NCBI GenBank assembly: GCA_001799565.1
Contig: MGTS01000021.1
Coordinates: 192,785-256,784, forward strand
Source of the DNA: Elusimicrobia bacterium GWA2_51_34
GTDB lineage: Bacteria; Elusimicrobiota; Elusimicrobia; Elusimicrobiales; UBA9959
Direction of reading: 5' to 3'
DNA length: 64,000 nucleotides
Part shown: positions 43,724 through 47,364 of the stretch, one piece after another
Numbering within the stretch: position 1 is the stretch's first letter
How the letters are laid out: each line of letters begins with the position of its first letter
Made by a program: the position numbers and the translations under genes
Notes under the pieces: generated by a model
What the model saw: the letters and a program-made list of their open reading frames with translations, nothing else
The model's database searches: none
What the model was told of the DNA's origin: nothing

Positions 43724-43845
43724 TGCGGCTAAGGTTCAAGGTTCAGCGGTTTCAATGGTTCAACGGTTGGGAATCAGGAAACACAAGAATATTCTAAAAA
43801 CAACCTTAAACCGTGAACCTTTGAAACCGCTGAACCGTGAACCCG
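43724..43845. repeat. Intergenic imperfect palindrome, word GGTTCA/TGAACC
   Basis: Left arm is gcggctaaggttcaaggttcagcggtttcaatggttcaacggtt and right arm is aaccttaaaccgtgaacctttgaaaccgctgaaccgtgaaccc. Confidence 0.85.
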
Positions 43846-43856
43846 ACAATTTTTTC

Positions 43857-45029
43857 ATGGAACAGGCCAAAGACGACATTATAATTTACGGTGGCAGTTT
43901 TGACCCTCCGCACAAAGGGCACACTGCGCTGCTTTGCGCGGCCCTGAGGGAAATCAAGCCGCGTCGCATCTACGTGGTTCCTGCGTTCCAATCACCGTTT
44001 AAAGACGCGGCTCCGGTTTCTTTTTTAAACCGTTTCAACATGCTGAAGCTCTCTTTGGGCGCCGTCCGCCCGATACGGACAACAAGGGCAAGCCGTTTTG
44101 AGGGCCAAAAAAAGCGCGTTACTTACACTTTTGAAACCATAAAGCATTTCAGGCGTTTGCACCCTGGGGCAAAAATTTATTTTCTGCTGGGTTCCGACTG
44201 CCTGGCCGGCTTTTGGCGCTGGAAAAACCGCCGGGGGATACTTAAAAACGCCGTTTTACTTGTGGGAGCGCGGCGCGGATTTCCGTTTAAAAATTACTCC
44301 AACTTGCCCGGCAGCGCCGTGCGGCGGGTTCCTTTCAGGCGGCTTAAAGGTTTTTTTCCTGAAATTTCCTCCACGTCTTTGCGCGTCGGATTATTGACAG
44401 GGGTCGATAGCCGGTTTATAGCGGCCCCGGTAAAACGCTATATCAGGCAAAAAAAGCTTTATTTTTCAAAGGAAAGGCGGTTTTTAAAACAGCTGCTTAC
44501 GCCCGCGCGCTACGTTCACAGCCTTTCAGTCGCCCGCCTAGCCGCGGAACTCGCCGCCCTGCACGGCGAAAGCCCGCAGAGAGCGGCATTGGCCGGACTT
44601 TTGCATGACGCCGCCAGAGACTTCGGGGAAGTCCGCCTTATGCGCTACGCCGTTTCAAAAAAACTGAAAATTCCCTGTTTTGCGCGGACAGCCGCGCCGA
44701 TTCTTTTGCATTCTTACGCGTCCGCGGAGGTTGCCCGCGGGCGTTTCGGTGTGAGGGATAAAACTGTTTTACGCGCCATCGCTCTGCATACTTCGGGAGC
44801 CGCCCGCATGGACACGTTGTCTAAAATCATATATGTGGCGGATCTGGCGTCGGAAGACAGGAAGTTTTCGCAGGCAAAAAAAATAGCGCGCCTTGCGCGG
44901 CGGGACCTTGACGAGGCTTTCCTCGCGGCCAATTATGTTAAACTCAAATACGCGGCTAAACGGCAGGCCGTAGTTGGAGGAAAGTCATCAGGTCGCAGGT
45001 TACAGGCAACAGGCAGCGATAGTATGTGA
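43857..45029 (+). CDS. nadD: Fusion of nicotinate-nucleotide adenylyltransferase (NadD) and YqeK-type HD phosphohydrolase
   Basis: The N-terminus has GGSFDPPHKGH and the C-terminus has an HD domain (RYVHSLSVARLAAELA...LLHDAARD). I chose the start at 43857 because the ORF-track start at 43755 lies in the palindrome. The last ~15 codons run into the next palindrome. Confidence 0.85.
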   Translation: MEQAKDDIIIYGGSFDPPHKGHTALLCAALREIKPRRIYVVPAFQSPFKDAAPVSFLNRFNMLKLSLGAVRPIRTTRASRFEGQKKRVTYTFETIKHFRRLHPGAKIYFLLGSDCLAGFWRWKNRRGILKNAVLLVGARRGFPFKNYSNLPGSAVRRVPFRRLKGFFPEISSTSLRVGLLTGVDSRFIAAPVKRYIRQKKLYFSKERRFLKQLLTPARYVHSLSVARLAAELAALHGESPQRAALAGLLHDAARDFGEVRLMRYAVSKKLKIPCFARTAAPILLHSYASAEVARGRFGVRDKTVLRAIALHTSGAARMDTLSKIIYVADLASEDRKFSQAKKIARLARRDLDEAFLAANYVKLKYAAKRQAVVGGKSSGRRLQATGSDSM

Positions 45030-45114
45030 CAGGTGGCAGGTATCAGGTAACAGGAAAATCCTGTAACCTGATACCTGCAACCTGTGACCTGTGACCTGTT
45101 GCCTGATACCTGCC
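44989..45114. repeat. Imperfect palindrome, word CAGGT/ACCTG
   Basis: The inner stem gcaggtatcaggtaacagg-aaaat-cctgtaacctgatacctgc matches 18/19 positions. The outer arms are made of looser caggt/acctg repeats. Confidence 0.9.
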
Positions 45115-45153
45115 CGCCAAACAACCGGCGGGTCCGCCCCAGGCGGATAAACT

Positions 45154-45176
45154 CCCGGCCGCCTAAGGCGGACGGG
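45154..45176. repeat. H2 hairpin element (CCCGGCCGCC-taa-GGCGGACGGG)
   Basis: It has the core CCGCCTAAGGCGG. A related small hairpin TCCGCC-cca-GGCGGA lies at 45133-45147. Confidence 0.7.
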
Positions 45177-45184
45177 TTAACACC

Positions 45185-46270
45185 ATGGAAACTGTGCCAA
45201 AAAAAGAAAGACTGCTGCTGATCTTTGGCTTTACCCTGTGCGCGGCCCTGCTTACGGGGCATTATCTTTCCGGCTTGTCTCGAAACCTTGCCGCCGGCCG
45301 AGACCTTTCAGTAGCGCTGATCGGCGGCAATGCGCCGATGGTGTTTGTTTATCATTCCTTTTCAAAAACTGTGACTGCCGTGCACCTGCCCCGCGAGCGG
45401 TGGAGAAGCGGCGGCTCAAACTATCAAAAAGCCTGCGCGGCGCTGGCCCTGGTTTCCGGCGGACCGCAGGTTCAACGGGAAGATGTTTTTTACCTGGCGC
45501 CGGACGCGCCGGGGGTTGATTTAAGCGCCTTTTATGAAACTTTAAATTCGTGGCGTTCACGGCCCAGGCTGGTTTTAAAAGCCGCGCGCTGGCTGTGGCG
45601 GCTGAAAAAAGAGGAACGAACCAATATCTCTTTCCATGATCTGCTGCTCACGGTTCTTGAATTGTCGCGCCTTAACTCCTCCGACTTTGTTGTTACCGAT
45701 TTTGAACGCGGGGCCGGCCCAAAACCGCAGGCGGACGGTTCAGTCGCGGACAGCGCCAGAGGCCCGCGACAGGCCAGTGTCACAGTCGCGGACAGCGCCA
45801 GGCCGGATGATAGCGCCAGAGGCCACCGGCACGCCGGAGGCAGAAGCCCGCGACAGGCCAGTGTCACAGTCGCGGACAGTCCGCCTAAGGCGGAACAGGC
45901 CCCGCACTTTGGCCCTTTCGGAAAAAGTGCGGGGCAGGCCGGTGTCTTCCCCACACCAGCGGCACGTGTGGGGGCGGTCATACGGGTAGAGGTGTTAAAC
46001 GCCTCCGGCAAAAAAGACCTGGCCATGCAGGTTACCAAATATCTCCGTAAAAAAGGTTTTGACGTAATTGATTTCGGCACTTACACGGGTACCGGGAAGC
46101 TTACAAAAATAGTAAACTGTTCTGGCAATGTGGCCGCCGCCAAAGCCGTTCGTTCGGCTTTGGGGCTTACCGCGCTTGAAATATATTCCAAGTTTGAAGC
46201 GGGCAATGTCGCTGAAGTTTCGGTGATCCTTGGCGAGGATTTTAATGAAGAGATAATAAAAAGTAGATAA
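45185..46270 (+). CDS. Membrane-anchored LytR_C-domain protein with a repeat-derived linker
   Basis: It has an N-terminal TM helix and a C-terminal LytR_C-like domain (IRVEVLNASGKKDLAMQVTKYLRKKGFDVIDFG...VILGEDF). The linker (aa ~185-255) is encoded by palindromic repeats. Confidence 0.7.
   Translation: METVPKKERLLLIFGFTLCAALLTGHYLSGLSRNLAAGRDLSVALIGGNAPMVFVYHSFSKTVTAVHLPRERWRSGGSNYQKACAALALVSGGPQVQREDVFYLAPDAPGVDLSAFYETLNSWRSRPRLVLKAARWLWRLKKEERTNISFHDLLLTVLELSRLNSSDFVVTDFERGAGPKPQADGSVADSARGPRQASVTVADSARPDDSARGHRHAGGRSPRQASVTVADSPPKAEQAPHFGPFGKSAGQAGVFPTPAARVGAVIRVEVLNASGKKDLAMQVTKYLRKKGFDVIDFGTYTGTGKLTKIVNCSGNVAAAKAVRSALGLTALEIYSKFEAGNVAEVSVILGEDFNEEIIKSR
45742..45899. repeat. In-CDS repeat block: 33-nt unit CCCGCGACAGGCCAGTGTCACAGTCGCGGACAG twice (45763-45795 and 45847-45879, 84-nt period), plus H2 hairpin 45880-45894
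   Basis: The units contain inverted repeats GTCGCGG/CCGCGAC and CGCGAC/GTCGCG. The H2 core tccgcctaaggcgga is flanked by ACAG on both sides. Confidence 0.8.
45900..45934. mobile_element. H1 hairpin element inside the LytR_C-protein CDS, flanked by CAGG(C) direct repeats
   Basis: aaCAGG[ccccgcactttggccctttcggaaaaagtgcgggg]CAGGcc. Element plus duplication is 39 nt, or 13 codons, translated as ..APHFGPFGKSAGQ.. Confidence 0.65.
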
Positions 46271-46290
46271 ATGCTCAGGGGGTTTTTATT

Positions 46291-47364
46291 ATGGATCTGG
46301 TAACTATACTCGGCGCTGCGGTGCAACAGGGTGCGTCTGACATTCATATCTGCGCCGGCAAGCCGCCAATGATGCGCCTTAACGGGCAGATAATGCCGGT
46401 AAACGCGAGTTTGGCTCCGCTTAAAGCGGAGGAAACAAAGTTGCTGGTGTATTCCGCGCTGTACGACGAACAGCGGGCTAAGTTTGAAGAGAATTGGGAA
46501 CTGGACTCTTCTTTCGCCGTGAAAGGCGTGTCCCGGTTCCGCCTGAATGTTCTTATCACAAGAGGCGGAGTGGACGCGGTAATGCGCGTTATTCCCTCCA
46601 TTATTCCGACTCCCGAGCAACTGGGCCTTCAGCCGACCATAGTAAATCTTTCCACCCTTCCAAAAGGGCTGGTGCTGGTTACCGGTCCCACCGGCTCCGG
46701 CAAATCCACAACGCTTGCTGCCATTCTGGACCTTATAAACCAGAAGAAAAAAGGCCATATCCTTACCATAGAGGATCCGATAGAATTCACCTACGAAAGC
46801 AAGGAATGCATAGTCCGTCAGCGCGAAATAGGCCAGCATACGAAGTCTTTTAACAACGCGCTCAGGGCCGCCCTGCGCGAGGATCCTAATGTTATTTTAG
46901 TCGGCGAAATGCGCGACCTTGAAACTATTCAGCTGACTATCACCGCGGCGGAAACCGGCCACCTGACGTTCGCCACCCTGCACACGCAGGACGCCCCTTC
47001 AACTATAGACCGCATAATAGACGTTTTTCCCCCTCATCAGCAGACGCAGGTGCGCGTGCAGCTGGCGGCTTCGCTGCAGGCGGTGGTGTCGCAGCTGCTG
47101 CTGCCGCGTATGGACGGAAAAGGCCGCGTAGCCGTGCGCGAGATAATGGTTATGACGCCGGCTATAGCGAATCTTATACGCGAAGGCAAGACGCACATGA
47201 TTTACAGCGCCATAGAAACCGGCGCCAAGTTCGGCATGATTCCCATGGATAAGGCGCTCTCAAACCTGGTAGCGCAGAAACTGATATCTTTTGAAAGTGC
47301 GGTGGCCAAAGCGCATGACCAGGAAATGTTTAAAAAACTCTGCGGTATGGCGGGCGGTTTATGA
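46291..47364 (+). CDS. pilT: Type IV pilus retraction ATPase PilT
   Basis: 357 aa with Walker A GPTGSGKSTT, an Asp box, and the PilT signature GHLTFATLHT. Confidence 0.92.
   Translation: MDLVTILGAAVQQGASDIHICAGKPPMMRLNGQIMPVNASLAPLKAEETKLLVYSALYDEQRAKFEENWELDSSFAVKGVSRFRLNVLITRGGVDAVMRVIPSIIPTPEQLGLQPTIVNLSTLPKGLVLVTGPTGSGKSTTLAAILDLINQKKKGHILTIEDPIEFTYESKECIVRQREIGQHTKSFNNALRAALREDPNVILVGEMRDLETIQLTITAAETGHLTFATLHTQDAPSTIDRIIDVFPPHQQTQVRVQLAASLQAVVSQLLLPRMDGKGRVAVREIMVMTPAIANLIREGKTHMIYSAIETGAKFGMIPMDKALSNLVAQKLISFESAVAKAHDQEMFKKLCGMAGGL

Follow-up and report, generated by a model that had tools for sequence, protein, structure and literature searches.

The LytR_C-domain gene and its repeat-built linker

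The 64,000-nt stretch of DNA analyzed here (the window) covers positions 192785-256784 of contig C21 (MGTS01000021.1) of Elusimicrobia bacterium GWA2_51_34 (GCA_001799565.1), a metagenome-assembled genome (MAG) of 2.63 Mb in 43 contigs with 51% G+C. At 45185-46270 on the forward strand, the list of open reading frames (ORFs) of the window holds an intact and uninterrupted coding sequence (CDS) for a cell-envelope LytR_C-domain protein of 361 amino acids (aa). The protein is composed of an N-terminal transmembrane (TM) helix with a conserved domain (aa 1 to ~180), a linker (aa ~186-255) encoded by short hairpin repeats, and the LytR_C domain itself. The latter matches Pfam PF13399 at residues 266-353 (E = 3e-14), and its score of 54.1 bits exceeds the Pfam gathering cut-off of 22.2, which places the protein in this family.

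The repeat block spans 45740-45948, slightly more than the 45742-45939 of a first-pass annotation of the window, which had described a repeated 33-nt unit and two hairpins, H2 and H1, as two element families stacked in one linker. All of these repeats were found where they had been placed, and the linker is indeed built from repeats. Instead of two families, however, four module types could be discerned, A, B, A′ and H1, which sum up to 42 + 84 + 42 + 39 = 207 nt or 69 codons, every module being divisible by three. All of them are given here on the forward strand. The A unit (45740-45783; TCAGTCGCGGACAGCGCCAGAGGCCCGCGACAGGCCAGTGTCAC) is 44 nt long with a tandem period of 42 nt, contains the stem GTCGCGG/CCGCGAC and is read as SVADSARGPRQASVT. 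The 84-nt B unit (45784-45867) corresponds to an A unit whose loop is longer by 42 nt (about 45802-45843); the added stretch folds into a small hairpin of its own, GCC.CCGG....CCGG.GGC. The A′ unit (42 nt) is an A/H2 hybrid, with the 15-nt H2 core standing in place of 15 nt of the A loop. Its 5′ part (45868-45899) consists of AGTCGCGGACAG, H2 and ACAGG, and its 3′ tail (45939-45948; CCGGTGTCTT) has been pushed away by the insertion of H1. The H2 core palindrome (45880-45894; TCCGCCTAAGGCGGA) is read as (S)PPKAE and is flanked by ACAG at 45876-45879 and 45895-45898.

The H1 hairpin (45900-45934; 35 nt) is nested in the A′ tail. Its 12-bp perfect arms are found at 45899-45910 and 45924-45935, and the target-site duplication CAGG lies at 45896-45899 and 45935-45938, as seen in the sequence and in comparison with the intact A′ tail of an orthologue described below (locus L089). 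Together, H1 and its duplication amount to 35 + 4 = 39 nt or 13 codons, encoding APHFGPFGKSAGQ, and the reading frame is preserved through to the LytR_C domain, both as proposed by the first-pass annotation. Peptides encoded at the block junctions include ...PQADGSVADSAR, ...SPPKAEQAPHFGPFGK and SAGQAGVFPTPAAR. When folded as single-stranded DNA, the region 45735-45965 reaches -59.5 kcal/mol compared to -46.1 ± 3.1 kcal/mol for shuffled sequences (z = -4.3), better than 200 of 200 shuffles.

Two further claims on the linker stood only in part. The 33-nt unit (45763-45795 and 45847-45879) does occur in two copies with an 84-nt period, within a direct repeat of 39 nt (45757-45795 and 45841-45879; 97% identical, 84 nt apart), yet it is not a mere local duplication but part of a dispersed 44-nt A family of 51 copies. 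Likewise, the H2 hairpin with its ACAG flanks is present, but a simple insertion of H2 with duplication of ACAG was ruled out, since the H2 core arrived as part of a 42-nt A/H2 hybrid, which stands alone at the same site in L089 and recurs at C35:28588-28646, C16:186-228 and C17:32788-32830.

Both domains flanking the linker are under purifying selection. In comparison with four orthologues, the ratio of nonsynonymous to synonymous substitution rates (dN/dS) lies at 0.28-0.55 in the N-terminal and at 0.17-0.27 in the LytR_C domain. A split or frameshifted pseudogene was ruled out by the intact ORF together with these values below 1 (0.17-0.55 overall), and the gene still looks functional as judged from its sequence. 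AlphaFold2, run on a 12-sequence alignment, modeled both domains with moderate confidence, whereas residues 175-263 showed a predicted local distance difference test score of 26-32 and no secondary structure at all. The linker is thus predicted to be disordered, and the repeats would lie in a flexible tether between the domains.

Directly behind the block, a unique in-frame hairpin at 45949-45973 of the forward strand (CCCCACAC-cagcggcac-GTGTGGGG) occupies the place of the ancestral linker of the relatives (VESGDKADIEAVS...). It was considered as a further repeat family and rejected, as it is present in a single copy in the genome. Its arms (TTCCCCACAC and GTGTGGGG) are identical to the palindrome at the core of this genome's CRISPR repeat, GTTCCCCACACGTGTGGGGATGAACCG, which occurs in 61 copies with a period of 61 nt on contig C7 from 14806.

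Empty sites and the history of the linker

Whole-genome searches identified the LytR_C gene in 37 of 41 genomes, this one counted. The nearest named genome is that of the Elusimicrobia MAG UBA9634, and the named protein homologues are all from Elusimicrobia. The orthologues of relatives are 297-337 aa long, with one additional protein of 388 aa that has a long linker of its own. In both protein and DNA alignments the two conserved domains align, and a block of ~60-70 residues is found only here. As the first-pass annotation had proposed, orthologues were aligned, and 14 relatives were found to be without the block, two of them from the same genus (with open frames 318 and 325 aa long) and 12 more distant, with linkers of 10-25 residues. 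At the DNA level, identity with the relatives ends at GGCGGACGG(T/C)TC, about 45742, and restarts at GCGGTCATACGGGT. A search of 5.8 billion proteins yielded 41 homologues of 259-347 aa. Among these, the closer homologues P0003-P0005 (299 aa, 71-77% identical) also lack the block and carry a short linker, GS|VESGDKAD... Orthologues without the palindromes are without the peptide segments as well. These alignments support an origin of the block as a probable lineage-specific insertion. In a genome of the same order (G028:C153, locus L004), the protein has its own linker of ~70 residues, unrelated in sequence to the block.

One homologue of 319 aa (P0002), recovered twice from independent metagenomes (records L089 and L090 of ENA and JGI), has a single A′ unit, placed at the very same codon. 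The insertion measures 42 nt, with the empty site reading GGCTC|TGTTGAA in L091 and the filled site reading GGCTC + AGTCGCGGACAGTCCGCCTAAGGCGGAACAGGCCGGTGTCAC + CGTTGAA in L089. The L089 A′ and the third unit of the window, in its tail, have the CCGGTGTC variant in common. Moreover, the intact A′ tail of L089, ACAGGCCGGTGTC, represents the empty site for the H1 of the window (35 nt plus CAGG). Further along, the L089 linker has gained an inverted copy of another repeat family, D, and the same linker has therefore been colonized independently.

Another homologue, P0001 (L088, GCA_003446275.1), is 100% identical to the window over 4 kb except that it lacks exactly the first 42-nt A unit, the gap being bounded by a 19-nt direct repeat, CAGTCGCGGACAGCGCCAG. 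This difference reflects either a live copy-number polymorphism or the collapse of a tandem repeat by the assembler, so that the copy number, at least, is in doubt. That short repeats were mis-joined or miscounted in the assembly to the extent of producing the block, or part of it, we regard as highly improbable all the same. The B, A′ and H1 modules and all junctions agree in both assemblies, two independent metagenomes hold A′ at the same codon of a diverged orthologue, every module is shorter than one sequencing read, and the frame is open through each of them.

Taken together, the comparisons suggest that the linker grew in three steps. The 42-nt A′ would have inserted first, behind the codons for ..ADGS. 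The 44-nt A and 84-nt B units would then have been added 5′ of A′, via insertion or unequal recombination among 42-nt-periodic units, and finally the 35-nt H1 would have jumped into the A′ tail, duplicating CAGG.

The gene upstream (43755-45029) encodes a 424-aa fusion protein that joins a cytidylyltransferase-like (NadD-type) domain to an HD domain. The neighborhood, comprising this fusion, the LytR_C gene, a PilT-like T2SSE ATPase and a protein binding cyclic nucleotide monophosphates, is retained in L088 and, in part, in L089. Two kinds of feature (at 45003-45114 and 45132-45173) occupy the 155 nt between this fusion gene and the LytR_C gene: a long imperfect inverted repeat made of ~7-nt CAGGTNA-like units, with 30-nt arms that are 90% complementary, and, directly ahead of the start codon, two H2-like hairpins (GTCCGCCCCAGGCGGA and GGCCGCCTAAGGCGGAC). 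In an Rfam scan of 44900-46400 the linker gave no match, and the upstream inverted repeat gave sub-threshold hits to microRNA models only.

Dispersed hairpin families and their copies in other genes

Copies were surveyed across the genome by BLAST and assigned to CDSs predicted with a purpose-built codon-usage caller (2,123 genes, 87% coding). The repeats are present far beyond chance. The 51 copies of the A family lie on both strands and eight of them are 100% identical; its 22-nt core occurs 50 times compared to 0 for the reversed control. The B family has five copies, 87-92% identical over 52-78 nt. For H1, 18 copies were detected, and its arm (CCCCGCACTTT...AAAGTGCGGGG; 12 bp, perfect, with a 13-nt spacer) is matched 12-14 times. 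The 2.63-Mb genome contains the 13-mer core of H2, CCGCCTAAGGCGG, at 41 sites, 39 of which have the full 15-mer, and TCCGCCTWAGGCGGA has 75 sites versus 0 for the reversed control. Allowing for up to one mismatch, the H2 family comprises 109 copies, and H2 is the commonest 14-mer of the genome after the CRISPR repeat. Family D (TGGAGGTGCCGTCCCAAAGGCCTCTGGCCCACAAAACGGCC; 21 copies in this genome) corresponds to the element found in yidC and queA.

Predicted CDSs hold 30 of the 51 A copies, 3 of the 5 B copies, 5 of the 18 H1 copies and 45 of the 109 H2 copies. All four families are denser between genes, with 61 intergenic versus 13 coding copies per Mb for A (4.7 times), 5.8 versus 1.3 per Mb for B, and a 17-fold and 9.5-fold higher intergenic density for H1 and H2, respectively. 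Another family, with the ends CCCACCACC...GGTGGTGGG, forms an outer hairpin whose loop holds A, D and H2 (C15:21600-21800 in queA; window about 30787, C21:223571). In addition, many intergenic H2 copies cap hairpins whose outer stems vary among copies, and T runs follow some of these hairpins, as in terminators.

The stem of the A unit was analyzed in 29 distinct full copies. It has 7 bp, from G4-C31 to G10-C25, with 99.3% of cells paired, and compensatory double changes at four pairs (U-A to C-G, G-C to A-U, C-G to U-A and G-C to U-A). This covariation was matched by none of 500 shuffles and by no slid register. The compensatory changes are partly residue-altering and partly synonymous, and the constraint therefore acts on the nucleic acid and not on the peptide.

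Among relatives, the distribution of the families is patchy. The A core counts 50, 19 and 45 copies in three genomes of the genus and 0-3 in 38 others, with 0 for the reversed control. For H2, a count of 75 in this genome compares with 2 and 16 in its sisters and with zero in 14 small genomes of a sister family. In another genus (G015, G004 and G024), one genome holds 144 exact H2 copies and its two congeners 12-17, which appears to be an independent burst of the same 15-mer. This patchy, burst-like distribution points to selfish spread.

The survey of other CDSs proposed in the first-pass annotation was carried out and returned H1 and H2 in frame there. Hosts confirmed by NCBIfam include RecN, YidC, QueA, ThrC, an RmlD-like reductase, a GlpK-like kinase, a tRNA nucleotidyltransferase and a PrsA-like isomerase, and the NCBIfam profile matches of RecN and QueA are each cut in two by the insert. 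Empty sites in the sister genomes reveal insertions of 42 nt in ThrC, 42 nt in RmlD and 60 nt in the GlpK-like gene (H1-like plus H2). RecN is longer by 108 nt than in the sister genomes, and YidC and QueA carry composite insertions, the one in QueA having the ends CCCACCACCCGC...GCGGGTGGTGGG with further modules nested within. One H1 copy lies in frame in an O-antigen-ligase-like gene and is common to all three genomes of the genus; such insertions can therefore outlast speciation. Two proteins of 890 and 939 aa (C20:46650-49322 and C17:41272-44091) have long low-complexity regions with in-frame B units and several family D peptides (..GGAVPEAAGPQNGQ..), and may represent extreme cases of repeat-built sequence. 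The first-pass annotation had likened the linker to genes colonized by Rickettsia palindromic elements (RPEs), and this likeness is borne out by a block that is absent from orthologues, a preserved frame and the in-frame copies in other CDSs.

Although four of the six frames of the A unit are open, 15 of 24 host genes read it in one and the same frame, SVADSARGPRQASVT (binomial p = 1e-4), and 24 of 30 CDS copies are co-oriented with the gene. Intergenic A copies between co-directional genes split 9:7 and are thus unbiased, and GC skew is unlinked to orientation. The bias in frame and orientation therefore arises after insertion: the coding copies are shaped by selection and not by insertion bias, and an orientation bias via replication or transcription was ruled out. 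Within CDSs, H2 is read as PPKA(D/E) in 17 copies or as SALGG/SASGG in another 17, and RLRR is rare.

The shared frame is also what would be expected if the elements were protein-level modules, that is, if a 14-residue spacer peptide (SVADSA[R/I]GPRQASVT, ..PPKAE..) were selected for a function of its own, for example in spacing within the envelope, as a site for proteases or modification, or in tuning linker length, and had spread between genes by recombination with the DNA hairpin being incidental. Many inserts do directly follow a signal peptide or TM helix in envelope proteins (PrsA-like isomerase, YidC, OmpH-like and an M14-type carboxypeptidase-like protein, the last named by eye only), and lengths are divisible by three even in intergenic tandem arrays with their 42-nt period. 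However, 41% of A, 72% of H1 and 59% of H2 copies are intergenic, several at 100% identity, and the remaining frames and the opposite strand are used as well. The stem changes, in part synonymous and in part not, follow base pairing rather than the peptide. Furthermore, the same proteins do without the peptide in sister species, and the cytoplasmic enzymes ThrC, RmlD, QueA and RecN are hosts as well. We therefore consider selection for the peptide itself unlikely.

Base pairing could alternatively be maintained because the hairpins have been exapted as mRNA or DNA signals and are kept for gene regulation, be it by pausing translation between domains, by affecting mRNA stability or by binding proteins. 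The covariation of the A stem, the strong fold of the linker region (z = -4.3), the H2 copies on top of terminator-like hairpins with T runs and the two H2-like hairpins in the 5′ gap of the LytR_C gene all fit this idea. Set against them, the hairpins are not conserved in orthologues, and they come and go among sister genomes, as well as between two assemblies that are otherwise identical. Relative to the genes on either side, intergenic copies are oriented without bias, Rfam gave no match, and the burst-like phylogeny is typical of selfish spread. A regulatory role as the reason for their maintenance is thus very unlikely.

Mobility, origin and relation to known systems

Most H1 copies are flanked by direct duplications of 4-5 bp, namely CAGG in the LytR_C gene and at C20:32055, CTAA at C18:75652, CTATG at C21:223763, CATAG at C24:62605 and CCTG at C42:148329. 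At C17:37313 the flanks are inverted instead of direct. H1 has inverted ends, a target duplication and an empty site demonstrated at one insertion, and its behavior is that of a minimal miniature inverted-repeat transposable element (MITE). Since H1 makes a target duplication, a trans-acting transposase is favored for it and would account for its copying. For the A units, hairpin-dependent copying, such as single-strand transposition, or template switching would be favored. These units are exact 42-nt insertions (ThrC, RmlD and the L089 linker) with at most 1-2 ambiguous junction bases, which sets them apart from MITEs. Compared to orthologues, H2 copies in CDSs appear as insertions of 21-33 nt including an outer stem, as a gain of 6 nt or as a replacement of the same length; given the latter, H2 may spread by short-patch conversion rather than by insertion.

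The genome encodes six genes of the Y1_Tnp family, and the hypothesis of repetitive extragenic palindromic (REP) sequences mobilized by REP-associated tyrosine transposases (RAYTs) was ruled out, as none of the six is flanked by A, H1 or H2. The family copy closest to any of these genes is an H2 at a distance of ~1.4 kb with another gene in between. An insertion sequence (IS)-like spaced pair of H1 arms was not present in the arm lists of this genome, which involved no dedicated spacing search and no other genomes. One Y1_Tnp gene (C39:34061-34895, locus L024) is flanked by inverted copies of TTAAGGTGACACACAACTTAA, a sequence with 14-15 genomic copies, and gene and repeat may form a REP/RAYT-type pair whose family has no relation to A, H1 or H2. 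Repeats of the form AAAAGGTACCTG(C/G)TACCTTTT, with 6-7 copies, come after a second Y1 gene (C1:34011-34652).

In our view, the linker of the LytR_C gene is most probably a disordered segment in which selfish hairpin repeats have accumulated under the filter of selection. It would have served as a landing pad for tiny non-autonomous hairpin repeats that multiplied in this Elusimicrobia genus. Within genes, selection would act as a filter, leaving those insertions that are multiples of three, free of stops, encode a harmless hydrophilic peptide and lie in disordered segments. The outcome would be a longer linker that still works, with the insertions as neutral passengers.

Several observations weigh against this interpretation. 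A clear target duplication was not found at insertions of the A units, and the empty sites in ThrC and RmlD resemble the A 5′ end, a likeness that could point to homology-driven copying. Several H2 copies in CDSs swap equal lengths of sequence, unexplained by simple insertion. Neither a transposase for the elements nor an autonomous partner was identified, and the six Y1_Tnp genes lack flanking copies of A, H1 and H2. Moreover, some copies assigned to CDSs may be miscalled, since genes outside the window were predicted by codon usage, translation of the linker is presumed, and the genome is a MAG.

A variant of the selfish explanation goes one step further and takes the A unit for a mobile 14-codon cassette adapted to life in genes, in which the hairpin is kept for copying and the favored frame provides a benign disordered spacer. 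The length of the unit stays at 42 nt even in intergenic tandem arrays, and the one-unit difference between otherwise identical assemblies suggests variation in 14-residue steps. We put this forward tentatively, as a possibility with rather less than even prospects. If true, the genus would hold a generator of linker-length variation, with 14-residue steps being added and removed across the proteome.

Among known systems, RPEs (Ogata et al. 2000, 2002) come closest in behavior; according to a recent review, their palindromic unit measures ~100-150 bp (PMC10969869). As in RPEs, palindromic repeats lie in frame in unrelated housekeeping genes and add a conserved peptide without destroying the protein (PMC10969869), copies are also found between genes, and there are several families per genome. 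This rests on the LytR_C gene, RecN, YidC, QueA, ThrC, RmlD and the GlpK-like and PrsA-like genes, with empty sites in sister genomes, and implies no likeness in sequence to RPEs. In contrast, the units described here are much shorter, with 15 nt (H2), 35 nt (H1), 42-44 nt (A and A′) and 84 nt (B), and they are modular, tandem with a 42-nt period and mutually nested. The host also differs, being a free-living groundwater Elusimicrobia MAG instead of an obligate intracellular alphaproteobacterium (Rickettsia).

Small dispersed repeats (SDRs) of Nostoc and other cyanobacteria (Elhai et al. 2008, Genome Res) are reportedly mobile hairpins far below 100 nt that are nested, carry compensatory changes and whose mobility was shown in comparison with related genomes. 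Our elements resemble them in small size, nesting and compensatory changes. They differ in phylum and sequence, and here many copies would be translated in frame, with a marked frame bias. The elements match RPEs in behavior, yet belong to neither RPEs nor SDRs.

Regarding MITEs, we know of none as small as the 35-nt H1 among Correia/NEMIS, Nezha and intragenic ERIC elements. H1 shares with these families terminal inverted repeats, a target-site duplication of 4-5 bp, the absence of transposase coding and occasional in-frame ORF fusions (PMC10969869). It differs by its mere 35 nt, and a parent IS with matching ends was not seen in the arm lists of this genome. REPs, including bacterial interspersed mosaic elements and the REPINs associated with RAYTs (PMC3116915), resemble our elements in their short conserved hairpins with covarying stems, mosaic or tandem clusters and Y1-transposase-like genes in the genome. 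The conserved stem is seen in the covariation of A. An extragenic location is part of the definition of REPs, however, and 59% of A copies (30/51) and 45/109 H2 copies lie in predicted CDSs, and RAYT genes flanked by the elements are absent here.

A literature search turned up no publication describing elements of this kind in Elusimicrobia. The in-frame colonization of genes by palindromic elements has mostly been treated as a peculiarity of Rickettsia. That it might occur outside this genus was merely suggested as possible in the recent review (PMC10969869), and it is documented here in a free-living bacterium of a candidate phylum. The documentation comprises exact empty sites, a proposed stepwise history within one linker and units down to 14 codons. 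Gene calls and orthologue alignments of MAGs are affected by such insertions, as in RecN and QueA, whose profile matches are split. Because the unit copy number differs between near-identical assemblies, the elements can serve as strain-level markers. The findings also bear on how disordered linkers grow and on the minimum size of a mobile unit of DNA.

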